52,475 bases of DNA. It comes from Nitrospirota bacterium (lineage in GTDB: Bacteria; Nitrospirota; Nitrospiria; JBHHUU01). Under the pieces are notes generated by a model that was given only the letters and a program-made list of their open reading frames with translations, had not been told where the DNA came from and made no database searches. Numbering within the stretch: position 1 is the first letter of the stretch; every line of letters starts with the position of its first letter. The stretch spans positions 1 to 52,475 of the forward strand of contig JBHHUU010000001.1 in assembly GCA_046753905.1 (NCBI GenBank), given 5' to 3'. The translations under genes and the position numbers were made by a program. This document shows, in pieces, positions 2,281 through 19,568 of this stretch.

Positions 2281-2350
2281 AGTTATGGAGTTATTGGTAA
2301 AACTAACTAATAAGACTAATAAGACTAATAAGACTAATAACTCCATAACT
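2281..2350. repeat. Intergenic hairpin with a 15-bp stem whose loop carries a 9-nt tandem array
   Basis: agttatggagttatt (2281-2295) pairs with aataactccataact (2336-2350). The loop contains (actaataag)x4 at 2306-2341. Confidence 0.85.
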
Positions 2351-2365
2351 TAAAGGAGGTAAGAG

Positions 2366-3217
2366 ATGAAGAGTAAAATAGTAATCCTTATTATTATAGT
2401 TTTTGTGCTATTTTTCCTTCCCCAGATACTTTTTATTGTGGACCAGACAGAATCAGCTATTGTAATACAGTTAGGAAAACCGATGAGAACTATTATGGAA
2501 CCAGGACTCCACTTTAAGACGCCATTTATTCAGGAGGTGATCTTTTTTGACAATAGATTGCTTGATTATGACGCCCTGCCAAAGGATATTATAACCAAGG
2601 ATAAGAAGACCCTTGTTGTTGATAATTATGCCAAGTGGCGGATAAAAGATCCCCTGAAGGTCTATCAGTCAGTAAGAGATGAAAGAGGGGCGCAGACAAG
2701 GTTAGATGATATTATCTATTCTGAGTTGAGGGTAGATCTCGGAGTTCATAATCTGATTGAGATAGTGTCAAAACAGAGATCAAGTATAATGAAAACTGTC
2801 ACACAGAGAAGCAGTGAAAAGGCTTCAGCCTTTGGTATAGAGATAACTGATGTAAGGATTAAGAGAGCAGACCTCCCCCTTGAAAATGAAAATGCAGTCT
2901 ATGCAAGAATGGAGACAGAGAGGCAAAGAGAGGCAAAGAGATACAGGTCTGAAGGAGGAGAGGAATCTCAAAAGATAAAGTCATTGGCAGATAAGGAGAA
3001 AGCGATCATATTAGCTGAAGCCTATAGGGAATCTCAGGAATTAATGGGGAGAGGTGATGCAGAGGCATTTAAAAAATATGCAGCCGCATATAAAAAAGAT
3101 CCCAGTTTTTTTGAATTTATGAGGACAATGGATGCCTATAAAGAGACTTTTACTCCTGGCACAACATTAGTCCTTACACCTGATTCAGAATACTTGAAAT
3201 ACCTGAAGAGAGATTAG
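2366..3217 (+). CDS. hflC: HflC-like SPFH/band-7 protein
   Basis: N-terminal TM helix and an SPFH domain (QTESAIVIQLGKP..., RIKRADLP). AGGAGG Shine-Dalgarno sequence 6 nt upstream. Paired with hflK. Confidence 0.85.
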   Translation: MKSKIVILIIIVFVLFFLPQILFIVDQTESAIVIQLGKPMRTIMEPGLHFKTPFIQEVIFFDNRLLDYDALPKDIITKDKKTLVVDNYAKWRIKDPLKVYQSVRDERGAQTRLDDIIYSELRVDLGVHNLIEIVSKQRSSIMKTVTQRSSEKASAFGIEITDVRIKRADLPLENENAVYARMETERQREAKRYRSEGGEESQKIKSLADKEKAIILAEAYRESQELMGRGDAEAFKKYAAAYKKDPSFFEFMRTMDAYKETFTPGTTLVLTPDSEYLKYLKRD

Positions 3218-3264
3218 GGTCTCACCGCAACCCTCTCCCAAATACGGATATTTGTTCTCTATCA

Positions 3265-3349
3265 GTCATCCTGAGAGGAGCGAAGGATTTGTTTTTTGGT
3301 GTCTTTCTTCAGTTTTTTAAAGCAGATCCTTTGTTTCACTCAGGATGAC
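3265..3349. repeat. REP-like palindromic element between two convergent genes; possible bidirectional terminator
   Basis: gtcatcctgagaggagcgaaggatttg faces cagatcctttgtttcactcaggatgac. The outer 11 bp are perfectly complementary and there is an inner aaggat/atcctt pair. Confidence 0.75.
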
Positions 3350-3451
3350 AACCTATTGGAATTACTACACTTTATTTAGTAATAAAAGTGTCTATAATTA
3401 TGCTGAATGGTTACGTCTGGCTTAGGATATTTTCTATCTCTGTTTTTGGGT

Positions 3452-3979
3452 TTAATGAATACCATTCTGTACTGCCTCCTCAAAATTGAATGGTCTGATA
3501 TTAAAGAATGGATTTTTTTTATTATGGCAGTTCAAACATTTCTTTTTGTCTGCCATCTGCAGACCAGCATCTATTGCATCCTGTTTATCAAACTGAGGAT
3601 TGTCTATCATTATCTTCATATATTCGTCTCCAGGCCCATGACACATCTCACAACCAACTCCTATCATGTCGGGACTTTCTCTCCTGTTTATAAATCCACC
3701 TGCCTTGCCAAATCCTGTGACATGACACTGAAGACACTTTGGAATTACTGTATAGTCTTTTAAGTGATCTATTCCTGCCTCTCTTTTCTCATCATGTTTC
3801 TCGAGCGGCTTCAGAGAATCAAAGGCATAGGCATGTCCTGTATTCTTCCATGCATTATATTCCTTTATATGACATACTTTGCATGCCCTTGAACCGACAT
3901 ATCCCTTTTTCTTTGCTGTGACAGTAATAGGAATAAATATAAAAGTTATTAGCAATAGATATGATAAAAACACCCTCAT
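3452..3979 (-). CDS. Tetraheme cytochrome c (secreted)
   Basis: Signal peptide plus four CXXCH motifs (CKVCH, CLQCH, CEMCH, CLNCH). Its start overlaps the upstream stop codon (ATGA). Confidence 0.85.
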   Translation of the reverse strand: MRVFLSYLLLITFIFIPITVTAKKKGYVGSRACKVCHIKEYNAWKNTGHAYAFDSLKPLEKHDEKREAGIDHLKDYTVIPKCLQCHVTGFGKAGGFINRRESPDMIGVGCEMCHGPGDEYMKIMIDNPQFDKQDAIDAGLQMADKKKCLNCHNKKNPFFNIRPFNFEEAVQNGIH

Positions 3980-5271
3980 CCCGAGAGATCCTTTTTTCTG
4001 ATAATATAAAGTTTCACAAATATAAAGAATATTATAACAAAAACCATCAAAATTACAATAAGATAATCTCTAAACCTATCTTTTAATTCATCTCTGAATT
4101 CTTGAACGGTCTTCAGTATATCTTCTGATATAGTGGCAGCCTCTTTGATATGTTGATTTATAGTCTCTACATTAAGGGAATGCGATGCTGATGGAATCAT
4201 AAGTATATGAGTTACTGCATCAGAATATTTATTATTAAGGTCTGTAATATTTCTACCTGCATCCTTTAATTCCTCTATTCCATTCTTTGCCTCTTCCAAT
4301 ATAGCCTTAGCCTCGTCTATATTCTTTTTTATCAGTGTAGCTACCTGATATTGGATAGAAGATGAATCATGGCATACTCCACAGTCACGTTCCTTATCAC
4401 CAATAAACTTATCCGGTGTAGGAGGGATATTTTTATGATTCCCGTGACATGTTATACATGTAGGGATACCTATTTGTTGAAGCATGCTGAAGTGCACACT
4501 TTTCTTGAAATTTTCCAGAACTACAGAATGACAATGACCACATACACCAGGTATATCAATCGGCGAAAGTGATCTCTCGCCATGCTTTCCATGACATGTG
4601 GTACAGTTAGGTGCTGCTAAAGGATTTTTATCTGAGAGCTTGCCATAGATGATCTTGCCATGTACGCCTTCTTTAAATAATTTAACCTGATCTGTAGGTA
4701 TATCATAGCCGTCCATTATCTCTTTTGAAGAATGACATTTCCCGCATGTATCAGGCAGATTTAATCTATAGACAGGGGAGTTTCTGTCAGTAACCTTTTT
4801 AATATCATGCCTTCCGTGGCAATCAATACATACGGCTGCTTTTTCATCTCTCTCTTCAGATAACAACCTTCCATGAACACTCTTTTTATAGTTTGCATAT
4901 TGATCAGTGGGGATATTATATTTGCCCATTTTATCAGCATTGGCATGACATTTAGCACATAGTTCAGGTATCATAAACCTTGTAGGCTTTCCTATAAAGC
5001 CTGCATCTTTACTCATTGCCTTTCTTGTAAGAAGAGTCGGATCTCCTCCATGACAATCAGAACAGATTATTCCTGCCTCTTTATGTATGCTCTTTTTCCA
5101 GTTTACCACAGGCATACGCAATCTCTTGGCTTTTAGCCCTTTATGACAGAGAACACAGCTATTCACCTCCACTTTTTTAAACTTGGCGATGCTATCATCT
5201 CCACAGGTAAAGAGTATAATCAGACTGATAAGAATTATTACAGAGTTTTTATGAGTTTTTAAAAGATTCAT
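3976..5271 (-). CDS. Nonaheme cytochrome c with a C-terminal membrane anchor
   Basis: Nine CXXCH motifs (CVLCH, CSDCH, CAKCH, CIDCH, CGKCH, CTTCH, CGHCH, CITCH, CGVCH). N-terminal signal with Cys (LFTCG). C-terminal helical region followed by a TM segment (YLIVILMVFVIIFFIFV). Confidence 0.85.
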   Translation of the reverse strand: MNLLKTHKNSVIILISLIILFTCGDDSIAKFKKVEVNSCVLCHKGLKAKRLRMPVVNWKKSIHKEAGIICSDCHGGDPTLLTRKAMSKDAGFIGKPTRFMIPELCAKCHANADKMGKYNIPTDQYANYKKSVHGRLLSEERDEKAAVCIDCHGRHDIKKVTDRNSPVYRLNLPDTCGKCHSSKEIMDGYDIPTDQVKLFKEGVHGKIIYGKLSDKNPLAAPNCTTCHGKHGERSLSPIDIPGVCGHCHSVVLENFKKSVHFSMLQQIGIPTCITCHGNHKNIPPTPDKFIGDKERDCGVCHDSSSIQYQVATLIKKNIDEAKAILEEAKNGIEELKDAGRNITDLNNKYSDAVTHILMIPSASHSLNVETINQHIKEAATISEDILKTVQEFRDELKDRFRDYLIVILMVFVIIFFIFVKLYIIRKKDLSG

Positions 5272-5314
5272 AAATAAGGATTTTCGTCTCCTAACTCCTG
5301 ACTGACTCCCAAAA

Positions 5315-6100
5315 TTATGAGATATAACCCAATATTGTAAAGAATATAAATCCTATTACCCCTAATATCCCGATAGTTGTTGCAATAGGCCTTTTTTTAG
5401 GATGTCTTTCTGGATTTTTATCAAAAAAAGGGAGTACAATAAGTAATAGTAAGAATATCATCTGCCCTACAACACCTATTACTTTAGGTGCCCATTGCCC
5501 CATAAATGTTAATACTTCAGATACCTTTAATATCTGATAAGAGGCAAGAAAAAACCACTCTGGTTTAATATGCTCAGGAGTAATTAAGGGATCTGCCTTG
5601 GGTTCCATAGGGGCAGGATTGAATATAACTAATGTGGAAATTATCCCTATCATAATAAAGACAACTATTATCTCTTTTAATGCGTGATCTGGCCAGAATG
5701 GAATTCCGCCCTCCTCTTCATATACAGGATTTAACAGATCTCTTGCAGATATAATCCCTACAGGTTTTCCATTGGCTGTAACCAGAAGATGTCTTATATG
5801 ATACCAGCTCATTGTCTCATTTGCCTTTACAGTGGATTCATTTTCATCAATCGCAGAGATAGGATAACTCATCACAGATTCAACAGATATTCGCGAGGGA
5901 GCAGCAGTCTTTTTTGTCATCACCTTTTTTACTATATCTACATCAGTGATAATGCCTACATATTCTTCCTCTTTCTTTACAAGTAGACTGTTTACCTTAT
6001 GCTGTTTCATGGTTGAGGCAGCACTCTTCACAGTCTCATTGTATGAGATAGAAAGGGGATTTGTAGTCATTACCTTTTTAACTGGAATTATAGGGATCAT
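5315..6100 (-). CDS. CBS-pair domain fused to cytochrome bc/b6f subunit IV (cytochrome b C-terminal part)
   Basis: Residues 1-125 form two CBS-like repeats (VMTTNPLSI...VGIITDVDIV and VMSYPISAI...VGIISARDLL). Residues 126-261 carry three TM helices and the subunit-IV/PetD signature PEHIKPEWFFLASYQILK. Confidence 0.8.
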   Translation of the reverse strand: MIPIIPVKKVMTTNPLSISYNETVKSAASTMKQHKVNSLLVKKEEEYVGIITDVDIVKKVMTKKTAAPSRISVESVMSYPISAIDENESTVKANETMSWYHIRHLLVTANGKPVGIISARDLLNPVYEEEGGIPFWPDHALKEIIVVFIMIGIISTLVIFNPAPMEPKADPLITPEHIKPEWFFLASYQILKVSEVLTFMGQWAPKVIGVVGQMIFLLLLIVLPFFDKNPERHPKKRPIATTIGILGVIGFIFFTILGYIS

Positions 6101-6107
6101 TTCTTTA

Positions 6108-6160
6108 GTTCCTTGTTAGTTCCTTGTTCTTGGTTATTAGTTCTTAGTTTTTTGTTCAAA
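6108..6160. repeat. Heptanucleotide tandem array in the cyt b / subunit IV spacer
   Basis: gttcctt gtta gttcctt gttcttg gttatta gttctta gtttttt gttcaaa (consensus GTTCTTN). Confidence 0.8.
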
Positions 6161-6198
6161 AATTTAAAACAAAGCGCTAAGGGTTTACCGCAAAATAA

Positions 6199-6936
6199 TT
6201 ACAGTGACTCAGAGATGCCCAGCCTCCTCAATATTAAAAAGTGCAATGCCAGAAGACCTACCATAATCCACGGAAGTATAATGACATGCAGGGCAAAGAA
6301 TCTTGTCAGGGTAATCTGACCTACATCAGGACCACCTCTAATCAGGTTTTTCAGCATTGGGCCTATCACAGGGACAGCACCTGGTATCTCTGTTCCAACA
6401 GTAGTAGCCCAATAAGATATCTGGTTCCACGGCAGAAGATATCCTGTAAAGCCAAATGTAAGTGTAAGACATAGCAAAATCACACCTACTACCCAATTCA
6501 GGTCCCTTGGAGGTTTATATGCACCATAGAAGTATATTCTTACCATGTGTATCAATATAGTAATCATCATTATATTTGCTGACCAGTGATGAAATCCTCT
6601 GATTAACCACCCGAACGGTGCATTATTGGTTATATGCACCACACTCTCATAGGCATGATCTATGGTTGGTCTGTAATACATTAAGAGCATTACTCCGCTT
6701 GTTGCATTTATTACAAATAGCAGGAATGTAATCCCTCCAAAGCAGAACCAGAAATTTACATGACCCGGCACAGGTTTTTTAAGAACCTTTTTAAGGGAAT
6801 CTCTTAACTCCAATCTCTCATCAAGCTCTCCATAGAATAATCCTGTTGCCAGAGTAAGCCAGTTAAGTATACCTTTGAGATTTACCTTTTTTTCAGTCTT
6901 CTTTGCTATATCATTTATCTCTTTTTGTCTAAACAT
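6199..6936 (-). CDS. Cytochrome b6-type subunit (N-terminal four-helix part of cytochrome b)
   Basis: FHHWSANIMMITILIHMVRIYFYGAYKPPRDLNW and TRFFALHVIILP blocks with the conserved heme-ligand histidines. Split-type b followed by a separate subunit IV gene. Confidence 0.9.
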   Translation of the reverse strand: MFRQKEINDIAKKTEKKVNLKGILNWLTLATGLFYGELDERLELRDSLKKVLKKPVPGHVNFWFCFGGITFLLFVINATSGVMLLMYYRPTIDHAYESVVHITNNAPFGWLIRGFHHWSANIMMITILIHMVRIYFYGAYKPPRDLNWVVGVILLCLTLTFGFTGYLLPWNQISYWATTVGTEIPGAVPVIGPMLKNLIRGGPDVGQITLTRFFALHVIILPWIMVGLLALHFLILRRLGISESL

Positions 6937-6987
6937 TCTCCCCTCACCCTTAACAATTATTTTCCTGTCTCTTGCGGCAGAAAATTT

Positions 6988-7101
6988 GAATAATGAATAT
7001 CGAATATGGTTACTGAGCCTGTCGAAGTAAGAAATGATATGTGTAGATGGAAAAGAGTGTAAATAAATTCATCATTCAATATTCCTTGTTCGATATTCAT
7101 T
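6988..7101. repeat. Inverted repeat built from heptamers in the Rieske / cyt b spacer
   Basis: The left arm is gaataat gaatatc gaatatg. aatgaatatcgaa (6992-7004) is the exact complement of ttcgatattcatt (7089-7101). The right arm overlaps the Rieske stop codon. Confidence 0.75.
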
Positions 7102-7573
7102 ACCCTATTATGATCTTATCATCTACAATTTTAGTTTCGTATGTAGGGAGGGGCTTAGGAGCTGGTCCTCCCAGTACATTCCCATTAAGGTCAAAAGAAG
7201 AGGCATGACATGGGCAAAACAGTATATTTTTATCAGGCTGCCACTCTACAATGCACCCTAGATGAGTACATATAAGTGAAATCGCATGGACATTATTATC
7301 AACCATAATTACACCTATTGGTCTCCCCTTTAATATTACCTTTTTTATCCTGCCTTCCGGAAGGATATCGGATAAAGGAAGACTTATCCTCTTATCATCA
7401 ACGCCTCCTCTTGTCTTTTCTGTAGGCCAAATATATTTCAGTCCTGTGTATCCTGCCCCTATTGATGCTATTATTCCCCATATAACTATGCCGATATTAA
7501 TTGTCTGCTCAAAAAAACTTCGTCTATCTATATTATTCGAACTGTTCTCTTCATGTTTCGTTATATCTTCCAT
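7100..7573 (-). CDS. Rieske [2Fe-2S] subunit
   Basis: N-terminal TM helix plus the cluster-binding boxes CTHLGC and CPCHAS. Confidence 0.9.
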   Translation of the reverse strand: MEDITKHEENSSNNIDRRSFFEQTINIGIVIWGIIASIGAGYTGLKYIWPTEKTRGGVDDKRISLPLSDILPEGRIKKVILKGRPIGVIMVDNNVHAISLICTHLGCIVEWQPDKNILFCPCHASSFDLNGNVLGGPAPKPLPTYETKIVDDKIIIG

Positions 7574-7736
7574 TAAAGTACCTCTTTAAAGTAAGACATT
7601 TTATTTATCTCCGATAAGTTTAGTTAAACTAACATCTTTGTTATAATATAAACATAGCACAAAGTCTGATAATTGTCTAATTCCCAAAAACTTGAGATAT
7701 AAATGGGAGAGGGTTGAGGTGAGGGTGAAATATTGA

Positions 7737-8672
7737 TCAGAAATGGAATCTGATGGTAATACTTGCCTCAACGCCATTTAATTCTAATGGAAGTTCTATT
7801 GGAACCCTGACTGTCCTTTCTACATTGCTGCTCGTATCTATACCAAAGGTAAGAGCATCACCTTCTTCAGGTGGTGGCGGTGGTGTAGGCTGACTATCAC
7901 CTGCCAGCGCAGGGACATCTACAACTGGCGGAAAGTTTGGCGGAAAGTACCTGTCTATCTTGACTTTTAGTGTCTTACCAATAACATAGTTGAGCTTAAT
8001 TCCAAAAGAAAGCCATTTTCTTAAAAAGTATTCTCCTCCCATTCCAATACGTGAAGTATAGGCTAAACCTCTTGCTTCTGTAGAGCTGACAGAAGCAAAA
8101 CTCAGACCAAATTCAGGTGCGACTACCTTTATTAGGGAATCCATTGTGAGATGAGACAGTGAAACACCTAAAAATTCAATATTGGTGAATAGTGTGCTAT
8201 GCTCTTTGTTATCAAACAGGTTATATCTCCAGCCTATCCAGAATTGATTTATTGTAATGTTATACGCTGCGCTTCTTGGCGCCAGGACAGTGTCATCAAG
8301 GGTAAGTATCGGCAGGTCATATAAGTCTTCTGATTTCCCCCTTCCTTCCCATATTGAAATTGTAAATGTCAGACTATGTCTCTCTTTTATCCTATATTGT
8401 GCCTCTATACCATAATTAAACTTCTCTTTTATGTTTGATACCGTGATGTTTCTATCGCTCCTATTCACATCTTTTATACTGCCGGGCAAAAGAAAATTAG
8501 GGTCCTGTTCTATTGCCAGACTACTATCATTAATCACCCTCCTTAATGTCTTCAGAGAGGGTTTATAATATCCCATTATATATCCTATGCTCCATCTTGA
8601 CTCCTCTCCATATACCTGTCCACAACAGAATATTAATACTATAAGAAATGACAAAAATAGCCTGATTTTCAC
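7737..8672 (-). CDS. Hypothetical outer-membrane beta-barrel protein
   Basis: Signal peptide, alternating beta-strand pattern, a PTPPPPPEEG insert, and a C-terminal ...RFHF typical of OMP sorting signals. No family recognised. Confidence 0.5.
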   Translation of the reverse strand: MKIRLFLSFLIVLIFCCGQVYGEESRWSIGYIMGYYKPSLKTLRRVINDSSLAIEQDPNFLLPGSIKDVNRSDRNITVSNIKEKFNYGIEAQYRIKERHSLTFTISIWEGRGKSEDLYDLPILTLDDTVLAPRSAAYNITINQFWIGWRYNLFDNKEHSTLFTNIEFLGVSLSHLTMDSLIKVVAPEFGLSFASVSSTEARGLAYTSRIGMGGEYFLRKWLSFGIKLNYVIGKTLKVKIDRYFPPNFPPVVDVPALAGDSQPTPPPPPEEGDALTFGIDTSSNVERTVRVPIELPLELNGVEASITIRFHF

Positions 8673-8693
8673 CCTCTGTTTTTTCTCCTTTGA

Positions 8694-8815
8694 AAATCCC
8701 CCCTTCCCACCTTACCAAGGGGAGATTTCCATATATCTCTTACTAAATGGTTTCCCCCTTTATTAAGGGCTATTTCTATAGATTCCCCCTTTGGAAAAGG
8801 GGGTTAGGGAGATTT
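8694..8815. repeat. Cluster of C-run/G-run hairpins
   Basis: aaatcccccctt (8694-8705) faces aaggggagattt (8717-8728). ccccctt (8785-8791) pairs with aaggggg (8797-8803). gggagattt recurs at 8807-8815. Confidence 0.7.
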
Positions 8816-8821
8816 AGCTTT

Positions 8822-10255
8822 TTATCTCAAAATTGTAATAGCTGCCTTTGCCTTATTTATGAAATCTGTGAAACTTTTTATCTTAATCAGACGCCTTATT
8901 ATATAAGATGGCCTGAAATAGAAAGTCATGTATGCCTTTTTAATAATACGCTCCAACTCCTCTTTTGGAAGATGAGGATATGAGATAAAAGACTCTTTTA
9001 TTGGATCTATTGCCCTGTATTCATCCTCTATCATCCAACCCTCTTTTTTTGCAATTCTATTAAACTCAGTATTCGGGAAAGGTGTACATATTGAGAATAA
9101 TACATAATCAACATTCAGGTTCTTTACCTTTTTTAATGTATACTCAATGGTCTCTTTTGTCTCAAGAGGAGAGCTTCCAAACAGTATATTCAGCTCAGGT
9201 TCAATATTATATTTATTAAGGAGATCTACTGCTATGTATAAATCTTCAATCTTCAGGTCTTTTTTTATATAATCTAATATCTCCTGTTTAAATGATTCAA
9301 TCCCAATATCTATATATCTGCATCCAGCCTCAGACATGGACTTTACCATCTCTTTGTCTGTCAGGTGATCTGCCCTTGCCAGACATGACCATTCTAATCT
9401 AAAATCCTTAATGCCATGACATATATCTATTACGCGATCTCTGCTGATTGTAAACTCATCATCAATAAATGAGAACGACCTGTACCCCTCTTCATATAAT
9501 ATCTTTATCTCATCAATAACATTGCCTGCTGATCTCAGTCTTATAGGAGGTTTGTTCTCCCTGTGCTTTCTATGCTCAATCTCACGGGCAAAACTCAAAG
9601 AATTAGGAACGCAATAATTACATCTATGAGGACATCCCCTTGAGGAGAGAACAGCAGTAAACGGTAATCTTGATAGTTTTGGGTTATTATATCTCTCTCT
9701 CCTTAAGATATCCCGTTTGGGAAATGGAAGTGTATCAAGATTATCAATAATATCCCTATAACTGTTAGAGACCTTCTCTTTCCCCTTAAGATATGTAATA
9801 CCTTTTATATCGGCTAAATCACCATTTTGCTTTAATCTCAGAACAAGCTCTTTTATTGTCTCCTCAGGTTCACCACGTATTACAAATGAATCCCTGTCTA
9901 CAAATATATTAGGATTGCTTGTTGGTTCAGTAGAGAGATAGATAAACTTTGCCGATGGCTTTATCTCTTTTATCAGTTCTCTTGCGATTAGATCGGTCTC
10001 TCTGGATAGAAACACCGTATAAAATATATAGATATCAGAATTATCTCTTTTAATAAAATCAATAAAACCCTTTCTATCAATACCATCTATTACGCAATCA
10101 ATAAAACATGTCTCACAGCCAGCCTCTTCTAAGACAGCCATTGAGTAAAGTATAAAGATATTAGGTTGGTAGTATATGCCATAGTTACACCCAAATATCC
10201 TCTCAGCAGAGAGTTTGCCATCAAGCGGCGGCGGGATTAAAAATGTTGTCTTCAT
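8822..10255 (-). CDS. B12-binding-domain radical SAM enzyme
   Basis: N-terminal cobalamin-binding-like domain, then CPHRCNYC (CX3CX2C) at about residue 208. Overlaps the upstream GT2 gene by 4 bp. Confidence 0.8.
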   Translation of the reverse strand: MKTTFLIPPPLDGKLSAERIFGCNYGIYYQPNIFILYSMAVLEEAGCETCFIDCVIDGIDRKGFIDFIKRDNSDIYIFYTVFLSRETDLIARELIKEIKPSAKFIYLSTEPTSNPNIFVDRDSFVIRGEPEETIKELVLRLKQNGDLADIKGITYLKGKEKVSNSYRDIIDNLDTLPFPKRDILRRERYNNPKLSRLPFTAVLSSRGCPHRCNYCVPNSLSFAREIEHRKHRENKPPIRLRSAGNVIDEIKILYEEGYRSFSFIDDEFTISRDRVIDICHGIKDFRLEWSCLARADHLTDKEMVKSMSEAGCRYIDIGIESFKQEILDYIKKDLKIEDLYIAVDLLNKYNIEPELNILFGSSPLETKETIEYTLKKVKNLNVDYVLFSICTPFPNTEFNRIAKKEGWMIEDEYRAIDPIKESFISYPHLPKEELERIIKKAYMTFYFRPSYIIRRLIKIKSFTDFINKAKAAITILR

Positions 10256-11247
10256 CTTCCTTCAACCCTTTTCATTGGGAATAAGAGTTCCCTTATAAAA
10301 CCGCATGACCATGAGGTCATTATTATTAATATTACAAATGGTATATTAAAGCCAACGGTAATGGATCTCCATTTAAGTATACCTAATACAGAGAAGAAAA
10401 GCATGAATATAAGTGCTGTTCCGCCAATTATCACCAGATAGAAAGGGTCACTCATATATATAACCGATAAGAGCATAAAAATAACTGGCAGACTTAAGCC
10501 GACACCTATATGGACAATATTTATCATTCTCCTGTCCCTTTTGCCTACCTGCAACCTTCCTATGGCATAACGATACATCTGCTTCCATAACTTTTTTGGT
10601 GTCGGTCTCCTGAAATGGTATACTATTACATCAGGAGTATATAATAACCTGTATCCCATGTCTATTATCTTCCTGTTCAACTGGGTATCATCACAGGTGA
10701 GCAGTGTCTCGTCTATGGGCATTACTTTTTCAAGAACTGTTCGTCTGTATATGGCATTACATCCTGGTATGCTGGAGACCTCTTTCTCATAAACCAGTTC
10801 TCTTGCATGAATAGAACCTGCAGCAAAGATACCCTGTCCAAAGACAAAACCTACTGCCTTTCCAAAGCTGCTTTCACTATCAGGAGTTATATTCGGTCCT
10901 CCTACACAGGCAACCTTATCATCCCTGTTAAAGTACTTCACACAATTTCTCAGCCAATCTCTGTCCATAACACAATCAGCATCAGTAAAGGCAATAATAT
11001 CTCCTCTTGCATACTCAAACCCTATATTCCTCCCTGGTGATACAGTCTGTTTGTGGTTTGTTATTACTATTGCTCCCATATTCTCTGCAATAGCAGGTGT
11101 GCTGTCATCTGACAGACCATCAGAGATAATAATCTCATACCTGTCTTCAGGATAATTCTGTGCTTTTATACTCTGAAGACAATATTCCATGAATCTCTCC
11201 TCATTCTTTACAGGGATTATTATTGAGATAAAGGGATAGTTTTCCAT
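10252..11247 (-). CDS. Family 2 glycosyltransferase with C-terminal TM segments
   Basis: ISIIIPVKNEE..., DGLSDD and FTDADC (DXD) motifs. Three to four C-terminal TM helices. Confidence 0.8.
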   Translation of the reverse strand: MENYPFISIIIPVKNEERFMEYCLQSIKAQNYPEDRYEIIISDGLSDDSTPAIAENMGAIVITNHKQTVSPGRNIGFEYARGDIIAFTDADCVMDRDWLRNCVKYFNRDDKVACVGGPNITPDSESSFGKAVGFVFGQGIFAAGSIHARELVYEKEVSSIPGCNAIYRRTVLEKVMPIDETLLTCDDTQLNRKIIDMGYRLLYTPDVIVYHFRRPTPKKLWKQMYRYAIGRLQVGKRDRRMINIVHIGVGLSLPVIFMLLSVIYMSDPFYLVIIGGTALIFMLFFSVLGILKWRSITVGFNIPFVILIIMTSWSCGFIRELLFPMKRVEGR

Positions 11248-11267
11248 AGTTATATTATATAGATTTC

Positions 11268-11451
11268 GTAACTATTCAGCTAATACAGAGCAAGGGTTCC
11301 AAAGACTTTATAATGCGTATGATTATAATAAGTTTATTAAGATACAACAGCATCATTTCAGATCAGGTCTCTATGAGTAGTGAGACCTAATCGCTAAGGT
11401 GACGCTATAAACTCTTTCCCACCCCTCACCCTGTAACAACTGAATAGTTAC
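11268..11451 (+). mobile_element. MITE-like repeat, full copy (184 bp)
   Basis: Terminal inverted repeats gtaactattcagctaatacagagcaaggg / ccctcaccctgtaacaactgaatagttac. About 90 percent identical to the copies at 16526 and 24377. Confidence 0.85.
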
Positions 11452-13718
11452 ATATTATTTAAGCGTTTTCTTGCCTTTTCTGCAAATTCTTTATACCTCT
11501 CATCCTTATCCGCTAACTTTAAGAATTTCTCATAATAGATTATCGCCTCATCTAATTTGTCAGCAGAATCCAATGTATATGCAAGATTATACAATGCCTC
11601 AGGATAATTAGGTTTTCTCTTTAATGCCTCCTTATACTCCTTTATTGCCAGTTCAGATCTGCCCTGTTTGTAGTATATCACACCCATATTATAATAGGCT
11701 ATAGTTCGAGCAGAATCATTCCTTATACTATCTTTGAACTCCTTTAATGCCATATCCAGATTACCCTGTTCAAAATAGATAAGCCCAAGATTATAGTGGG
11801 CATCGGCAATATCTGGGTCAAGCCTCAATGCCTTCTTATATGCATCTATGCTTAGATCGATCCTGCCTGTCCTTTTGTAAAGAATGCCCAGTGTATTATA
11901 AACAAGGGGAGCATTCGGAAATATCTCAATAACTCTCTTATATTCATCAATCGCCATATCCCATTTCTTCTGGTCCAGATAAATAGACGTCAGAGCATCA
12001 CGGGATAGAAAATGATATGGATTTATGGATAATGCCTTTTTATACTCATCAATAGCCTTATCCATATTACCCTGACGCTGATATATTAATCCTATTCTAT
12101 AGTGTGCCTCATAGAATCCCGGCGCAACACGTAAAGTATCACGATATTTATTTAAGGCAGAGTCTATATCTCCCTTGTTAAAATATGCCATACCAAGGTT
12201 GTAATGGGCAAAATAGAATTTTGGCAAAAGCTCTATTGCCTTTTTGTATTCCTCAATAGCCATATCGATATTCCCATTTCTGGCATAATTAAGTCCCAGG
12301 TCACTATGCACGGTACTGGAATCGGGTGTCTTTTTTAGATTGTCACTCCAGAAGAGAATAGGATCCTTCCACAGATTATTCCTCTGAACAGTCCATACAG
12401 ACTGTGTGAGAATCAAAATTATAGGGAAAGAGCAGTACGCAGTAAACAGCAAGTAATTATGTGGAGATGATCTGTATCTGAATTTAATCATATCTGCTAA
12501 CTTTACAATCCCTATAGCTGCTATTATAAAGAATCCTATGGAAGGCAGATATAACCTGTGCTCAAAGACCAGCCATAGCCGTATTACAGTAGACTCTATC
12601 ACAAGGTTTAAGAAAAACCATAGTATAAAAAAGGAGATAACAGTCCTTCGCTTATATATGTATATACCATACCCTATTATACCAAAGATTATAAGCATAC
12701 AGATAAATGTACTGACTGGATTGAACAGGGAATGGGATACAGAAAACTCGTATATAAGTCTTAATCTTGATGGCAATGGTAATAATAATAGAGTTATGTA
12801 ATATATTACTACTCTGAATTCAGTAATCAATCTCTGTAAGGCAGTAAATTCCTGTTCTATGCTCCGTGCTGCCATCAAGCCCTTTATCCCCTTTATTATA
12901 CCTTTTTGACTACCTGCACCTATATATATAAACCCTATTACAATAAAGGATATGACCATTATAATAAAATATGGACATGCCTTTTTTATCTTTTTGAGAT
13001 CAAACCGGGCAAAAAAGTATATCTCATAGAGGATTATTATTAACGGTAATGTGATTGTGATCTCCTTACTTCCAAAGGCAAGAAGGGCGAAAAACAGAGA
13101 AGTCAGAAGCCAGAAGTTAGAAGTTAGAAGTCCATCTGACTTCCCTTTGTTCCTGACTTTTGACTTCTGACTCCTGTTCCATGATACCCTTCCCTTCACA
13201 TAACATAATAGTGACAGTATATAAAACATCGTTGCCATAGATGTTGCACGCTGAACTATATATGTTACTGCCTGAGTCTGAACAGGTGATGTCGACCAGA
13301 GAAGGGCGGCAATTATGGCTATCCAGAAGGGTTTATCTCGAAACTCGAAACTCGAAACTCGAAACTCTTTTATTCTCTGCCCCCTTATCTCCAGTGTTAT
13401 CTTCAGAAAAAGATATAGACTAATAGTAGTAATTATATGAATAATAATGTTTACAATGTGATATCCTGATACATCAAGACCTCCAAAATAGTAATTTATG
13501 GCAAAGGTTATGTTAGTAACCAGACGACGGACGGAGTCATTATTAAAGATACCCTTCATAAACCCATCTGGAGAGAGTGTAGTTATCTTGATGAATATAT
13601 TATCTACTATAATCGCATAATCATCAAAATAAAATGGGACATCAATGGTATTAGAATAAAGGATTATCACAATAACAGGAATTATTAATAAAATTATCTT
13701 GGGGAAAGATTGTTTCAT
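11448..13718 (-). CDS. Membrane GT-C-like / TPR-repeat protein (TMTC/PMT-like putative glycosyltransferase), paralog 1
   Basis: About 450 aa with 10 or more TM helices, followed by about 9 TPR repeats. Paralogous to the adjacent gene. The stop codon lies inside the MITE terminus. Confidence 0.7.
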   Translation of the reverse strand: MKQSFPKIILLIIPVIVIILYSNTIDVPFYFDDYAIIVDNIFIKITTLSPDGFMKGIFNNDSVRRLVTNITFAINYYFGGLDVSGYHIVNIIIHIITTISLYLFLKITLEIRGQRIKEFRVSSFEFRDKPFWIAIIAALLWSTSPVQTQAVTYIVQRATSMATMFYILSLLCYVKGRVSWNRSQKSKVRNKGKSDGLLTSNFWLLTSLFFALLAFGSKEITITLPLIIILYEIYFFARFDLKKIKKACPYFIIMVISFIVIGFIYIGAGSQKGIIKGIKGLMAARSIEQEFTALQRLITEFRVVIYYITLLLLPLPSRLRLIYEFSVSHSLFNPVSTFICMLIIFGIIGYGIYIYKRRTVISFFILWFFLNLVIESTVIRLWLVFEHRLYLPSIGFFIIAAIGIVKLADMIKFRYRSSPHNYLLFTAYCSFPIILILTQSVWTVQRNNLWKDPILFWSDNLKKTPDSSTVHSDLGLNYARNGNIDMAIEEYKKAIELLPKFYFAHYNLGMAYFNKGDIDSALNKYRDTLRVAPGFYEAHYRIGLIYQRQGNMDKAIDEYKKALSINPYHFLSRDALTSIYLDQKKWDMAIDEYKRVIEIFPNAPLVYNTLGILYKRTGRIDLSIDAYKKALRLDPDIADAHYNLGLIYFEQGNLDMALKEFKDSIRNDSARTIAYYNMGVIYYKQGRSELAIKEYKEALKRKPNYPEALYNLAYTLDSADKLDEAIIYYEKFLKLADKDERYKEFAEKARKRLNNM
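11473..11975. repeat. 503-bp direct repeat, copy A (3' end of TPR paralog 1)
   Basis: By line-by-line comparison it reads identical to 13771-14273. Confidence 0.9.
13098..13172. repeat. In-frame palindromic heptamer array inside TPR paralog 1
   Basis: (agaagtc agaagcc agaagtt agaagtt agaagtc) catct (gacttcc ctttgtt cctgact tttgact tctgact). It is 75 bp, or 25 codons, and is absent from paralog 2. Confidence 0.85.
13337..13367. repeat. (CTCGAAA)x4.4 tandem repeat inside TPR paralog 1
   Basis: ctcgaaa x4 plus ctc. It encodes EFRVSSFEFRD on the minus strand. Confidence 0.9.
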
Positions 13719-15974
13719 CTATCGTTTTTTATACAGGCGAGTTTTTTTTCCTATTTTAAGCTGTTCTTTAGCCTTTTCTGCAAATTCTTTATACCTCTCA
13801 TCCTTATCCGCTAACTTTAAGAATTTCTCATAATAGATTATCGCCTCATCTAATTTGTCAGCAGAATCCAATGTATATGCAAGATTATACAATGCCTCAG
13901 GATAATTAGGTTTTCTCTTTAATGCCTCCTTATACTCCTTTATTGCCAGTTCAGATCTGCCCTGTTTGTAGTATATCACACCCATATTATAATAGGCTAT
14001 AGTTCGAGCAGAATCATTCCTTATACTATCTTTGAACTCCTTTAATGCCATATCCAGATTACCCTGTTCAAAATAGATAAGCCCAAGATTATAGTGGGCA
14101 TCGGCAATATCTGGGTCAAGCCTCAATGCCTTCTTATATGCATCTATGCTTAGATCGATCCTGCCTGTCCTTTTGTAAAGAATGCCCAGTGTATTATAAA
14201 CAAGGGGAGCATTCGGAAATATCTCAATAACTCTCTTATATTCATCAATCGCCATATCCCATTTCTTCTGGTCTGTATATATCCTTCCTAATTCTATATA
14301 CGAATAGATATTATCCTTGTATCTCTCTTTTAACAATTTATATACCTTGACAGCCATATTAATATCCTCTTTTTTTTCATATAGCATGGCAAGGTTAATG
14401 TATGCCTTAATTTTTGAGGGATCACTTCTTATTACCTCTATATATTGCTCAATGGCAGGTTCTGTCTCCTCTGTCTCTTCATATATCTGTGCTAAGTTAT
14501 TATGTGCTGTAGTATAGTCGGGATCTATCTCTATAGCCATCTTGTATTCTTTAACAGCGGAATCTATATCTCCATGACTATAATAATGTACTCCTAATTC
14601 ATTATGAGGATCACTCAAATAGGGTTCCTTTTTTATATTATCTCTCCAGAGGAGAGATACATCCTGCCAGACATAATTTCTTTGTATAGTCCATAGAGAC
14701 TGTATAAAAATGACAGCTATTATAATGATGCAGTTGGCAGCAGGCAGCAGGCAGTCAGGGAGAGATGAAACAGTTGAATTTTTTCTGTACTTTACCATCT
14801 CTGTAAACTTTACCATACCCACACCAACTATAACAAAGAATCCTATGGATGGCAGATATAATCTGTGCTCAAAGACTAAATGTAATCTTGTTATTAGAGA
14901 TTCTATCACAAGGTTTAAAAAAAACCAGAGCATAAAAAAGGAGATAACACCCCTTTTTCTAACTATAGACAAGGCATATACAATTAATCCGAGAATAATA
15001 ACAATGGCTGGGATAGTGGTAAGAGGATCAAATAATGAATGTGAAACAGGAAAATTATATAGTACCCTGAGTCTTGAAGGCAGAGGGAGTATAAGTAGCG
15101 TTATATAATAAATAATTACCCTGAATTGAGTTAAAATCCTCTCTCCTGCTGTAAATGCCTGCTGTTCAATGTTACTTACAGGTGGTTCTGTTAATCTCTT
15201 TAAGGCACTAATAATCCCTTCATCCATATACAGGTGACTGAATATAAGGACAGATACCATAATAATACCTGTAAAATAGATTGCCCTTTTCCTCATCCTT
15301 TTAGTGTTAGATTGTGTAAAAAAGTATATCTCATACAGGATAATTACAAAAGGGAGTGTGGCTGATATCTCCTTACTCCCAAAGGCAAGAAAGGCGAAGA
15401 CAGTAGACAGTAGATAGTAAAGAGCAGGGTGACCCCTGCCACCTGATATCCTTCCATTCACATAACATAGCAGCGACATCATATAAAACATAGTTGCCAT
15501 AGAGGTTGCACGTTGAACTATATATGTTACTGCCTGTGTTTGTACAGGAGATGTTGACCAGAGGAGGGCAGCAATCATACCTATCCAGAAAGACCTGTCC
15601 GAAATACAAGGGTCTTTTGTTTTCTGCACCCTCATTTCCAGAGTTATATACAGAAACAGGTATATTGTAATCGCAGTAATTATATGAATAATAATATTTA
15701 CAATGTGATACCCATACACCTCAAGTCCTCCAAAATAGTAATTTATGGCAAAGGTTATGTTAGTAATTGGACGATTACGGGAGATAGAACTATTATGGAC
15801 TATATTTTTTAATGTATAGACTGAAATATCTGTCAGATGGATTGCATTATTATCAACAATATTTCTTATATCATCATAGAGGAAAGGACTATAGAGTGAA
15901 TTTAGATGGATTATAGATATAAGGATTGTGATAAATGATACTGCAACGATATGTTTTTTCTTTATATTATCCAC
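13719..15974 (-). CDS. Membrane GT-C-like / TPR-repeat protein, paralog 2
   Basis: Same architecture as 11448-13718. Conserved N-terminal blocks (TNITFAINYYFGG, LLWSTSPVQTQAVTYIVQRATSMATMFY). Identical C-terminal stretch of about 167 aa. Confidence 0.7.
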   Translation of the reverse strand: MDNIKKKHIVAVSFITILISIIHLNSLYSPFLYDDIRNIVDNNAIHLTDISVYTLKNIVHNSSISRNRPITNITFAINYYFGGLEVYGYHIVNIIIHIITAITIYLFLYITLEMRVQKTKDPCISDRSFWIGMIAALLWSTSPVQTQAVTYIVQRATSMATMFYMMSLLCYVNGRISGGRGHPALYYLLSTVFAFLAFGSKEISATLPFVIILYEIYFFTQSNTKRMRKRAIYFTGIIMVSVLIFSHLYMDEGIISALKRLTEPPVSNIEQQAFTAGERILTQFRVIIYYITLLILPLPSRLRVLYNFPVSHSLFDPLTTIPAIVIILGLIVYALSIVRKRGVISFFMLWFFLNLVIESLITRLHLVFEHRLYLPSIGFFVIVGVGMVKFTEMVKYRKNSTVSSLPDCLLPAANCIIIIAVIFIQSLWTIQRNYVWQDVSLLWRDNIKKEPYLSDPHNELGVHYYSHGDIDSAVKEYKMAIEIDPDYTTAHNNLAQIYEETEETEPAIEQYIEVIRSDPSKIKAYINLAMLYEKKEDINMAVKVYKLLKERYKDNIYSYIELGRIYTDQKKWDMAIDEYKRVIEIFPNAPLVYNTLGILYKRTGRIDLSIDAYKKALRLDPDIADAHYNLGLIYFEQGNLDMALKEFKDSIRNDSARTIAYYNMGVIYYKQGRSELAIKEYKEALKRKPNYPEALYNLAYTLDSADKLDEAIIYYEKFLKLADKDERYKEFAEKAKEQLKIGKKTRLYKKR
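13771..14273. repeat. 503-bp direct repeat, copy B (3' end of TPR paralog 2)
   Basis: Reads identical to 11473-11975. Confidence 0.9.
14731..14758. repeat. Heptamer array (GCAGNNG)x4 inside TPR paralog 2
   Basis: gcagttg gcagcag gcagcag gcagtca. Confidence 0.75.
15398..15418. repeat. Heptamer array (AGACAGT)x3 inside TPR paralog 2
   Basis: agacagt agacagt agatagt. Its reverse complement is the same unit as the array at 47963. Confidence 0.8.
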
Positions 15975-16063
15975 AGCGATAACAAGTTGTATAACTTCAT
16001 GAAACTGTTTGTTTACCCTAATATAAGGGCATTGTTAAATCAGTATAGGTTGATAGAAATTAT

Positions 16064-16310
16064 GGCTCTTTGAAATTTCAAGTGGGTAAGTAGTGTTTAT
16101 TGAACTGGGAAAAATTAAGTTTACCCGTTACCAAAAAAGCAATTATTTTAAAATATTTTATGTTTCGGAAACACTTGGCTTTAGCTTTCAAGCAGGCCAT
16201 TATTACGTATTTTCTTCTGAAAATCCCCCTCACCCTAACCCTAACCCTCTCCCACAAGGGGAGAGGGAACTTTCCCCTCCCTAATTACCCACTTAAAATT
16301 CAAAAGAACC
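16064..16310. mobile_element. Second inverted-repeat-bounded element (about 247 bp), possible MITE remnant
   Basis: ggctctttgaaatttcaagtgggtaagtag (16064-16093) matches the reverse complement of 16281-16310 (ggttcttttgaattttaagtgggtaattag) at 25 of 30 ungapped positions. No target-site duplication seen. Confidence 0.5.
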
Positions 16311-16352
16311 TCCATGCATCTTTGCACGGAATCAGTGCAAAGATGCATGGAG
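16310..16352. other. Perfect 18-bp stem / 7-nt loop hairpin
   Basis: ctccatgcatctttgcac ggaatca gtgcaaagatgcatggag. Confidence 0.9.
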
Positions 16353-16525
16353 TCAATGCACAATACCCGTGCAAATTTATCCTTTCCCGTGCGGTTTCTG
16401 AATTATTATTCCTATTTGTATTGAAATTGTCCACAGTTTGACTACATTTTAATTAAGGATGTAGCAAAAAGATGGGGATGGCTTGTGCCTACTGTTGACA
16501 TGACCGAATATTTCTATCCTACTTC

Positions 16526-16710
16526 GTAACTATTCAGCTAATACAGAGCAAGGGGTTCCAAAAACTTTATAATGCGTATGATTATAATAAGTTTATTCAA
16601 ATAGAACAGCATCATTTCTGATCAGGTCTCTATGAGTAGTAAGAGCTAAATACTAATGTGACGCTATAAACTCTTTTCCACCCCTCACTCTGTATTAACT
16701 GAATAGTTAC
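16526..16710 (+). mobile_element. MITE-like repeat, full copy (185 bp) with 8-bp target-site duplication
   Basis: Flanked by cctacttc on both sides (16518-16525 and 16711-16718). Terminal inverted repeats as in the other copies. Confidence 0.9.
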
Positions 16711-16720
16711 CCTACTTCTA

Positions 16721-17671
16721 TTATTTTAAATGCTTATTATACTCCATGTCAAACCACATTGCAAAGAAGAGACATTGGAGACCTGATATGGTCAAAAATA
16801 CTGAAAATAGGGCGCTGGTTGCAACTACACTGTTTCCTGATAATCTTATGTATACAAGAAATGACCCGAATCCTACACCTACAGGAAATAATAAAATGCC
16901 GAGTGCATAGAAAAATACTAAGGGGTGAAAGTCTCTGATTACATACTTTTCAAACATCCTCCTGAAAAACCCCTTTATCAATAAGAATGAGATAGCAGGA
17001 ATTACTCTCCATAATCTTATGCCTGATTTTTCCCCAATATTGTATACTGGCCTGACAGATACATCCCTGACCCTGAAATTACTGATATTCAGTTTTATCA
17101 ATATGTCATTCGGCATACCGTATCTCTTATATATTGAGTCAATATCTATTGTCTTCAGTGCATCAAGGGATATCGCTGTATATCCTGTCTGAGAGTCGGC
17201 TATGTGCCAATAACCAGAGGCTATCTTTGTCAATAAGGATAGGACTGAGTTTCCAAGATATCTGTAGTGGGGGATCATCTTCCATGATTCTCCCCTGAAG
17301 AGTCTATTCCCTTTTGTGTAATCTGCATTTCCATTTGCCACTGGTTCTATTATCCTGTTAAGGTCATTCGGGTCCATCTGGGCATCACCTGCCATTACAG
17401 CCACTACATCTAATTTTTCATCTATCGCCCTTTTATAGCCTGTTGTAATAGCTCCACCCACCCCCATATTCTTTTCATGCCTTATAAGGATCAATCTTTT
17501 CTCTTTATCCTTTTGATACCCTTGTACAACTCTATATGTGTTATCAGAGCTGCAGTCATCCACTATAATAATGTTATCTACAAAAGACGGCATGGTCTCT
17601 ATGACCTTTTTTATTAATATCTCTTCATTATATACAGGTACTACAACTCCTATCTTTTTCTTTTTATACAT
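16721..17671 (-). CDS. Family 2 glycosyltransferase, polyprenyl-phosphate sugar synthase-like (DPM1/ArnC-like) with C-terminal TM helices
   Basis: IGVVVPVYNEE, VDDCSSDNT and AGDAQMDP motifs. Two to three C-terminal TM helices. Confidence 0.75.
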   Translation of the reverse strand: MYKKKKIGVVVPVYNEEILIKKVIETMPSFVDNIIIVDDCSSDNTYRVVQGYQKDKEKRLILIRHEKNMGVGGAITTGYKRAIDEKLDVVAVMAGDAQMDPNDLNRIIEPVANGNADYTKGNRLFRGESWKMIPHYRYLGNSVLSLLTKIASGYWHIADSQTGYTAISLDALKTIDIDSIYKRYGMPNDILIKLNISNFRVRDVSVRPVYNIGEKSGIRLWRVIPAISFLLIKGFFRRMFEKYVIRDFHPLVFFYALGILLFPVGVGFGSFLVYIRLSGNSVVATSALFSVFLTISGLQCLFFAMWFDMEYNKHLK

Positions 17672-17673
17672 TA

Positions 17674-18741: not shown

Positions 18742-18749
18742 AGCTATTT

Positions 18750-19568
18750 TTACCCTTTTATCGCCCCTGCAGTTAATCCCTCTACTATTCTCTTTTGAAA
18801 TATGAATACAAGGATAATTAGAGGCATGGTAACAACTATTGATGCAGCAGATATATCCCCCCAGGGCATTTCATGCAGACCAGGGAATAGTGCTATCCCG
18901 ACAGGTATAGTCCTTGAGGCAATTGTAGAGGTAAATGTGAGGGCAAAGAGAAATTCATTCCATGAGAATATGAATACCAGAATAGCAGTGGCAAAGAGAC
19001 CAGGGAGAACAAGAGGCAATAGTATCTTGTAAAATATCTGAAAGTTGGTGCAGCCGTCAACCCTTGCTGCAAGATATATCTCATCAGGTATCTCTTTAAA
19101 GAAGTTTGTCAACACCCATATAGTCAATGGTAGAGAAAAGGTTGTATATGTGATGATCAATGCCCACCATGTATCCCTGAGACCAAGTCCCCTTATGATT
19201 ATAAAGAGAGGGCTTACTGTTGCAATAGGTGGAAACATAGAGACTGATAAGACCATGCCAAGGATGATTCCCTTTCCTTTTATATCTAACTTTGCAAGGG
19301 CAAACCCTCCAAGCGAGCCTATTAATATGGAAAAGAGTGTGGTAGCAGTTGCCACTATACAACTATTGGCTATAATCCTTAAAAAGGGATGACCTTTAAA
19401 TATGGATATATAGTGTCCAATGACAGGCTTTGCAGGAAGAAGAGGCGGTAATCTGCTGAGCTCTGAGTCAGGTTTTAGAGATGTTATAACCTGCCATACA
19501 AAGGGGGCGAGGTTATAACAGACCAGAAAGGCAATAAGTAACCAGAATATTAATCTCTTTATCTTCAT
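18750..19568 (-). CDS. ABC transporter permease, MalG/CUT1 type
   Basis: Six TM helices and an EAA loop (EIYLAARVDGCTNFQIFYKILLPLVLPG). Confidence 0.85.
   Translation of the reverse strand: MKIKRLIFWLLIAFLVCYNLAPFVWQVITSLKPDSELSRLPPLLPAKPVIGHYISIFKGHPFLRIIANSCIVATATTLFSILIGSLGGFALAKLDIKGKGIILGMVLSVSMFPPIATVSPLFIIIRGLGLRDTWWALIITYTTFSLPLTIWVLTNFFKEIPDEIYLAARVDGCTNFQIFYKILLPLVLPGLFATAILVFIFSWNEFLFALTFTSTIASRTIPVGIALFPGLHEMPWGDISAASIVVTMPLIILVFIFQKRIVEGLTAGAIKG

Follow-up and report, generated by a model that had tools for sequence, protein, structure and literature searches.

A putative Rieske/cytochrome b complex of the b6 type, widespread yet uncharacterised, in which a nonaheme cytochrome stands in the place of cytochrome c1 or f

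The first 52,475 nucleotides of contig JBHHUU010000001.1 from a Nitrospirota bacterium (GenBank assembly GCA_046753905.1), referred to below as the window, carry on the minus strand from 7573 to 3452 five consecutive open reading frames (ORFs) encoding, in this order, a Rieske protein, a split cytochrome b6, a fusion of a CBS pair with subunit IV, a nonaheme cytochrome of 431 residues (c9) and a tetraheme cytochrome of 175 residues (c4). An earlier reading made from the DNA letters alone, here called the sequence-only reading, had placed these ORFs at the same positions and in the same strand and order, and each of its assignments is now backed by Pfam and NCBIfam. The nine CXXCH motifs and C-terminal transmembrane segment that it counted in the larger cytochrome, the four CXXCH motifs in the smaller one and the ATGA overlap thought to couple the last two genes (3979-3976) were likewise borne out. 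The G+C content of the five genes (36-40%) matches that of the window (37.5%).

Table 1. Coordinates of the operon genes and flanking elements in the window
Feature	Position	Strand	Description
Rieske [2Fe-2S] subunit	7100..7573	-	157 aa; PF00355 53 bits (cut-off 20.3)
Split cytochrome b6	6199..6936	-	245 aa; PF00033 205.6 bits
CBS-pair/subunit IV fusion	5315..6100	-	261 aa; CBS and Cytochrom_B_C (PF00032) domains
c9, nonaheme cytochrome c	3976..5271	-	431 aa; multiheme c3/c7-type (Pfam/NCBIfam)
c4, tetraheme c554-like cytochrome	3452..3979	-	175 aa; PF13435 94.3 bits (cut-off 20.8)
ATGA overlap, c9 stop TGA and c4 start ATG	3976..3979	-	identical 4-nt overlap in L083 and L084
Upstream intergenic region	7574..7736	-	repeat CTCACCnCAACCCTCTCCCA at 7727-7704, just past the stop codon of the 311-aa gene; transcription unit probably begins here
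Convergent spacer between c4 stop and hflC stop	3218..3451	.	palindrome and gene-end motif (3216-3240); likely end of the transcription unit
Repeat ending in AACCCTCTCCCA	3216-3240, 7704-7727, 16230-16280, 42442-42453	+, -, +, -	just past gene stops

The first three genes have the features of a b6f-type core, namely a Rieske protein of the twin-arginine translocation (Tat) type with its cluster boxes, a split cytochrome b, a CxGG motif and a PEWY-type Qo motif. In the Rieske protein, the twin-arginine motif RRSFF (residue 17) precedes a transmembrane anchor (residues 24-45), and beyond these lie the cluster boxes CTHLGC (residue 102) and CPCH (residue 120), the latter continued by A-S-S-F. According to the published residue rule, which places the S-F class at about +260 mV ('Mid+'; PMC4122944), these S and F tuning residues predict a potential of about +260 mV, a value that would fit a His/Met heme as the first acceptor. 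Cytochrome b6 retains both heme b ligand pairs (H116-x13-H130 and H217-x14-H232), and its CFGG motif (C65) matches CxGG, the attachment site of heme ci/cn (PMC5600118), while the protein falls under the NCBIfam cut-offs for both cytochrome b6 (274 bits vs 325) and ExtP (252.8 bits vs 290). The subunit IV part contributes three transmembrane segments (residues 139-165, 203-228 and 237-261) and a Qo motif that reads PEWF (fusion residue 180), a Tyr-to-Phe variant of PEWY. Neither cytochrome f (PetA) nor a class I cytochrome c was found by Pfam or NCBIfam in the position of the third subunit, which is occupied by the nonaheme c3/c7-type protein. The 163-bp spacer between Rieske and b6 was also considered as the site of a small Pet-like subunit, and this candidate was rejected. 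A 47-residue ORF (6957-7100, minus strand) fills the spacer, its ATG overlapping the Rieske stop, and is probably not a gene because the predicted peptide is not hydrophobic and the same spacer is only 16 nt long in the related metagenome contig L084.

The nonaheme cytochrome begins with a hydrophobic signal segment, carries its CXXCH motifs at C39, C70, C105, C148, C176, C223, C244, C272 and C297 and ends in a single transmembrane segment (residues 398-427). Its heme region (residues 36-301) consists of four similar di-heme units (CXXCH ... S-x-H-G ... CXXCH-G-x-H) and a ninth heme. In an end-to-end alignment of 105 sequences, comprising the window protein and 104 homologues, all nine motifs are present in every sequence; the possibility that a frameshifted assembly had inflated the heme count was therefore rejected, and the count of the sequence-only reading survives. 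The same alignment shows His 63, 133, 155, 204, 230, 260, 279 and 364 to be invariant or nearly so, with position 86 occupied by Met in 68 sequences, Lys in 28 and His in 5. The eight histidines and the variable position 86 bring the candidate distal ligands to nine, as many as there are hemes, which would be expected of a protein that only transfers electrons.

The AlphaFold model of c9 is confident (predicted local distance difference test, pLDDT, 90.3; predicted template modelling score, pTM, 0.77) and places the heme domain ahead of long helices (residues 306-337, 343-365 and 368-430) that lead to the anchor in the membrane. The helical stalk and the single C-terminal anchor are conserved across the family alignment. 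Although the best fold matches of the model are hydroxylamine oxidoreductases (HAO; 6t5e, E = 5e-4, template modelling (TM) score 0.41; 4n4j, TM score 0.42), TM scores near 0.4 reflect shared heme packing rather than a shared active site. Of the signs of a catalytic heme looked for in the sequence, no CXXCK motif was present, all nine motifs being CXXCH, and the nine candidate distal ligands give no hint of a missing one. No HAO or NrfA Pfam model scored above its cut-off, the NrfA model reaching 18.6 bits against 24.1. A PDB sequence search found no solved structure of any family member, the top match being the nonaheme OcwA (6i5b, E = 3e-9; PMC6703420).

The family to which c9 belongs is large. 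A word-indexed search returned 4128 relatives, and when all 50%-identity representatives were searched exhaustively with HMMER, 420 clusters matched (E <= 1e-30), mostly of 410-440 residues and aligning end to end. A locus scan with one genome per species yielded at least 356 c9 loci, of which the best 80 were inspected; counts out of 80 below refer to these. In 66 of them the homologue has exactly nine motifs, and the Chloroflexota versions are extended to 10-17. A b6 gene lies within 3 kb upstream of c9 in 73/80 loci, usually in the order Rieske, b6, subunit IV, c9, and two further loci (L020 and L073) have c9 directly before Rieske, bringing the loci with an adjacent Rieske/b cluster to 75/80. 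A few homologues (L006, L037 and L041) lack such a cluster. Judged by record titles, the loci belong to Chloroflexota, Acidobacteriota, Gemmatimonadota, NC10, Nitrospinota, Thermodesulfobacteriota and Ignavibacteria, and further to KSB1, Aminicenantes, Omnitrophota, Planctomycetia, Binatia and Armatimonadota. Over 74 loci, the distance between any two b6 sequences tracks that between their c9 counterparts (r = 0.86; none of 999 permutations exceeded 0.18), and the correlation, which arises partly from shared species history, fits inheritance as one module. Because c9 stands beside Rieske, b6 and subunit IV in 75/80 loci, it is most likely the regular c1/f-equivalent subunit of a widespread b6-type complex.

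These results bear on two claims of the sequence-only reading. Its view that both cytochromes belong with the Rieske/b6 module, the larger one in the place of c1 or f, is supported by the shared topology and by adjacency across more than 12 phyla. Its description of the locus as an uncharacterised variant with a peculiar combination of genes stands in part. The system is indeed uncharacterised as far as could be established, given that there is no solved structure and that the literature searched contained no paper naming or studying the nonaheme family or a nonaheme Rieske/b subunit. The combination is less peculiar than supposed, since the core of Rieske, b6, subunit IV and c9 is widespread; what is lineage-specific is the c554-like partner (about one locus in ten) and the CBS fusion (about 32 clusters).

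The last gene encodes c4, which has an N-terminal signal segment and heme motifs at C33, C82, C110 and C148. The comparison with cytochrome c554 that the sequence-only reading had proposed identified c4 as a c554 homologue through PF13435 and the Nitrosomonas europaea structure 1bvb (E = 3.5e-24, over c554 residues 5-98 and three heme motifs). The NCBIfam c554 equivalog model gave 102.9 bits against a cut-off of 400, below the level of orthology with Nitrosomonas CycA. In the c4 family alignment the four motifs are invariant, the only invariant histidine outside them is H175 and position 49 is His or Met, so that one or more of the hemes may lack a distal ligand from the protein. AlphaFold modelled c4 with low confidence (pLDDT 64). 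The window protein ends exactly at H175 (3452-3457), without the 'E-x3-LKY-x-H' tail of most homologues, including those of L083 and L084. A c4 homologue of about 174 residues directly follows c9 in six of the 80 loci; others occur before Rieske in L036 or within a few kb, and two more relatives lie beside Rieske/b clusters of other kinds (L097 and L098). Elsewhere the gene 3' of c9 is often another multiheme protein (8, 11 or 18-21 hemes), or there is none. Because this gene varies among loci, c9 appears to be the fixed component, accompanied downstream by a cytochrome that differs from lineage to lineage.

The CBS pair occupies residues ~1-130 of the fusion (DNA 5696-6100), N-terminal to subunit IV, and we take it to lie on the cytoplasmic side, following the established topology of b6f subunit IV. 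Fusions of this kind are rare, with ~32 clusters at 90% identity, from metagenome-assembled genomes (MAGs) labelled Nitrospirae, and in three of these clusters the fusion gene lies away from Rieske and b6. In four loci from such MAGs (L085, L086, L088 and L089) we observed a conserved neighbourhood of tig-clpP-clpX, the CBS-subunit IV gene, a FixO-like monoheme cytochrome, two U32 peptidase-family genes and an SCP2 gene. The U32 pair and SCP2 gene beside the stray fusion presumably resemble ubiU/V/T of O2-independent quinone hydroxylation. A free-standing CBS pair of 137 residues in another Rieske/b cluster of the same genome, on contig C9, is 45% identical to the fused pair.

The closest relatives of the whole operon are the metagenome contigs L083 and L084, which hold the two c9 proteins nearest to that of the window (~50% identity) and share the full five-gene layout, ~50% identical. 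The orthologous operon in L084 has the same order, with identities of 54% for Rieske, 70% for b6, 54% for CBS-subunit IV, 48% for c9 and 43% for c4. Both contigs encode after c4 a further multiheme cytochrome of 295 residues (L083 1913-2800; L084 5500-6387) with an N-terminal anchor, 12 CXXCH motifs and a weak NapC/NirT match, and no homologue of this protein was found in the Nitrospirota genome. This genome (2.45 Mb, 98.8% complete) is the sole member of its family in the genome collection searched.

A census of the genome found 27 ORFs with at least two CXXCH motifs. None of them is an HAO-sized octaheme ORF, and a search with PF13447 (HAO) gave no match in this genome, nor did it in the control genomes. 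Two large proteins of ~900-970 residues with 11 CXXCH motifs each (contig C8 20626-23547 and contig C31 11262-13979) share the N-terminal motif 'NTKHNLS ... CVFCHTPHGA', and a 452-residue protein with nine motifs (contig C4 6921-8279) is weakly c554-like (24% to c4 over ~200 residues), with a borderline NrfA-family Pfam match. These three multihemes are possible downstream partners of the complex. A second Rieske/b cluster, of the anammox/Nitrospira type, lies on contig C9 (~3800-19300; locus L002 covers part of it). It encodes three GltD-like NAD(P) oxidoreductase/FeS proteins (614, 464 and 273 residues), a Rieske protein of 185 residues with an S-Y signature, a b6 of 256 residues with CLGG and a long subunit IV of 279 residues, and upstream of these the CBS pair of 137 residues, a bd-like membrane protein of 581 residues and several c-type cytochromes.

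On the basis of these features, we propose, with a probability of roughly three in four, that the five genes encode one b6f-type respiratory complex, a Q-cycle quinol oxidase feeding a periplasmic multiheme chain; judged from sequence, the locus encodes a complex of the b6 type and belongs to a subtype that is widespread but uncharacterised and has a nonaheme substitute for c1 or f. The proposal draws on gene content, motifs, family conservation, synteny and fold; whether the subunits physically assemble, which way electrons flow, which heme receives them first and what accepts them in the end are extrapolated from these. Quinol would be oxidised at the Qo site formed by b6 and subunit IV (PEWF), and one electron would pass through the Tat-exported Rieske cluster to the nine-heme cytochrome, held by its single C-terminal helix in the position otherwise taken by cytochrome c1 or f. 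The second electron would cross the membrane by way of hemes bL, bH and ci to the Qi site, completing a proton-motive Q cycle. From c9, electrons would continue to the translationally coupled, c554-like c4 in the periplasm and on to the acceptors of the cell, here probably other multiheme cytochromes, which are the obvious candidates, rather than classical reductases. An adenosyl ligand can probably modulate the complex through the CBS pair, which sits at the N-terminal, cytoplasmic end of subunit IV.

Several observations weigh against this proposal. In L084 the region between subunit IV and c9 (2328-3474) is interrupted by a TIR-domain gene, a 93-residue gene and a PIN-domain gene, an insert that looks like a defence or toxin-antitoxin-like cassette. 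The intergenic gaps of 163, 98 and 43 bp in the window leave space for internal promoters. Neither a c9 homologue nor a CBS-subunit IV fusion was present in any of 40 genomes of the same class, an absence because of which the module is best regarded as accessory and probably laterally acquired; lateral acquisition here fits the known mobility of Rieske/b operons (PMC5600118). No final acceptor was recognised, as searches of the genome found no heme-copper oxidase, DsrA or NrfA, and no periplasmic molybdoenzyme, the three molybdoenzymes present all being cytoplasmic and of the NuoG/formate-dehydrogenase type. MqnA/D were also not found in the genome, which bears on the type of quinone.

The gaps and the L084 insert, together with the homologues L006, L037 and L041 that lack an adjacent Rieske/b cluster, are also what one would expect if the cytochrome genes were mere neighbours of Rieske and b6 and served an unrelated pathway. 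This explanation is largely refuted by the adjacency seen in 75/80 loci across phyla and by the correlated divergence of b6 and c9, and we give it hardly any weight. A different concern is direction. The same complex could run in reverse, carrying electrons from a periplasmic or extracellular donor, such as Fe(II) whose electrons enter by way of outer multiheme cytochromes, through c4 and c9 uphill to the quinone pool, as proposed for the reverse bc1 of iron oxidisers. A genome without recognisable terminal reductases or heme-copper oxidases that nevertheless encodes 27 multi-CXXCH ORFs, among them the two 11-heme proteins of ~900-970 residues, would suit this arrangement, and for other Rieske/b complexes a Q cycle running backwards has been suggested (PMC4122944). 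However, the sequence bears no sign of direction, the Qo and Qi signatures look like those of any ordinary forward complex and the module also occurs in many lineages of aerobic heterotrophs (such as Acidobacteriota, Chloroflexota and Gemmatimonadota), which leaves reverse flow unlikely.

A catalytic role for one of the cytochromes, which would make the complex a quinol:substrate oxidoreductase like the anammox complex Kuste4569-4574 with its HAO-like octaheme subunit, appears improbable. The site would be a heme whose distal ligand is exchangeable or absent, at position 86 of c9 or in c4. The HAO fold matches of c9 point in this direction, as does c4, in which a single invariant histidine outside the motifs (H175) and one His/Met position serve four hemes. 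The c554 of N. europaea has a five-coordinate heme. Nevertheless, the nine candidate ligands for the nine hemes of c9 and the Met/Lys/His exchange, which is typical of a six-coordinate heme, argue for electron transfer alone, as do the lack of CXXCK and of above-threshold HAO or NrfA Pfam matches. The structural similarity is moreover low (TM score ~0.4), and the c4 model has a pLDDT of only 64. We thus favor the forward, Q-cycle quinol oxidase as the function of the five-gene complex.

The elements flanking the operon agree with a unit running from Rieske to c4. The gene-end repeat CTCACCnCAACCCTCTCCCA follows the stops of hflC and of the 311-residue gene upstream of Rieske, and a search tolerating one mismatch gives four copies across the window (0.33 expected). 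The copy at 16230-16280 contains a short palindrome (ccctctccc/gggagaggg). Because the repeat follows its stop, the 311-residue gene is suggested to end a unit of its own. This gene was considered as an operon member and rejected, being followed by the repeat and not conserved in the 80 loci. It lies at 7737-8672 on the minus strand and encodes a protein that looks like an outer-membrane barrel, with a signal peptide, a Pro-rich stretch and Phe as its last residue; the protein has no Pfam or NCBIfam match and a 40%-identical paralogue on contig C53. At the other end, the spacer between c4 and hflC contains an 85-bp palindrome (3265-3349) with perfect 11-bp arms (GTCATCCTGAG and CTCAGGATGAC), and its predicted fold has a minimum free energy of -50.3 kcal/mol (z = -2.56). 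Promoter and terminator scans performed at chance level, and the promoter-like matches within 7574-7736 were likewise not above chance.

Complex III is usually divided into bc1, b6f and alternative complex III. If the proposed reading is correct, the locus represents a fourth common design, in which a nine-heme membrane-anchored cytochrome accepts the Rieske electron, present in hundreds of genomes of phyla that inhabit soil, groundwater and sediment, and for which we found no structure, redox data or name. The module would then count as a proton-motive quinol oxidase in metabolic reconstructions of Acidobacteriota, Chloroflexota, Gemmatimonadota, Nitrospinota and others. It would also raise the question of what benefit a nine-heme acceptor brings, for example as a capacitor, through its periplasmic reach or by offering several exit points. 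The additions of this particular operon, the CBS sensor fused to subunit IV and the dedicated c554-like partner, are both rare and testable. We tentatively entertain a more specific version, in which the family is a distinct, widespread and unnamed complex III class that places an HAO-fold c9 on a helical stalk in the position of c1 or f, with a His/Met or His/Lys entry heme. The extras of this lineage would be adenylate-sensing CBS domains near Qi and heme ci and a c554-like exit cytochrome, perhaps with an open-coordination heme for chemistry of the NO-handling type.

Among known systems, the core recalls b6f and the b6c complexes of Firmicutes and heliobacteria, with which it shares a split b6 and three-helix subunit IV, the CxGG motif, a PEWY-type Qo motif, a Tat-type Rieske protein and a third redox subunit that has a single C-terminal helix as its anchor. 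It differs from them in having an unrelated nine-heme protein instead of cytochrome f or a mono- or di-heme cytochrome c and in carrying a CBS pair on subunit IV, and from b6f also in its b6, which reaches 274 of the 325 bits that NCBIfam sets for cytochrome b6. The sequence-only reading had pointed to multiheme-associated Rieske/b complexes in other bacteria, and published examples do exist, in anammox bacteria and in Geobacter (PMC12954380, PMC5877670). In the anammox complexes Kustd1480-1485 and Kuste4569-4574, a b6-like core is accompanied by a hexa- or octaheme cytochrome that replaces cytochrome f; Kustd1485 is described as having long helices wrapping the complex, and one anammox operon encodes an HAO-like octaheme protein (PMC12954380). 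The likeness is one of position, a multiheme cytochrome in the place of cytochrome f beside a b6-like core. Unlike these complexes, the window operon has no NAD(P) oxidoreductase/FeS subunit and its subunit IV has three helices rather than five, whereas the cluster on contig C9 of the same genome, with its NAD(P) oxidoreductase/FeS proteins and long, five-helix subunit IV, resembles an anammox complex.

The ExtMNOPQS (Cbc6) cluster of Geobacter sulfurreducens likewise combines a Rieske protein (ExtO), the b6-like ExtP and the subunit IV-like ExtQ with multiheme cytochromes, encoding 4-, 10- and 12-heme proteins along with them (PMC5877670, PMC2825233). The b6 of the window is similar to ExtP. 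In contrast to that cluster, the window proteins score below the models for ExtP (252.8 vs 290 bits) and ExtQ (18.6 vs 150 bits), the Ext cytochromes lie mostly upstream, and the window has no rhodanese, ExtI porin or selenoprotein. Orthology of c9 with Geobacter ExtN or ExtM was considered and rejected, as c9 gave no match to those models, and c4 likewise matches no Ext cytochrome model. Compared with c554 of N. europaea (CycA, 1bvb), c4 is 60 residues shorter, lacks the hao/cycB context and has a Rieske/b partner instead of HAO. With HAO, the octaheme family and OcwA, c9 shares a multiheme domain followed by C-terminal helices, and it differs from them in being membrane-anchored and linked to Rieske/b, with no catalytic heme sign and a TM score of ~0.4. 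Multiheme acceptors have also been proposed for early anaerobic bc complexes by Dibrova 2013, as that work is cited in PMC5317091.

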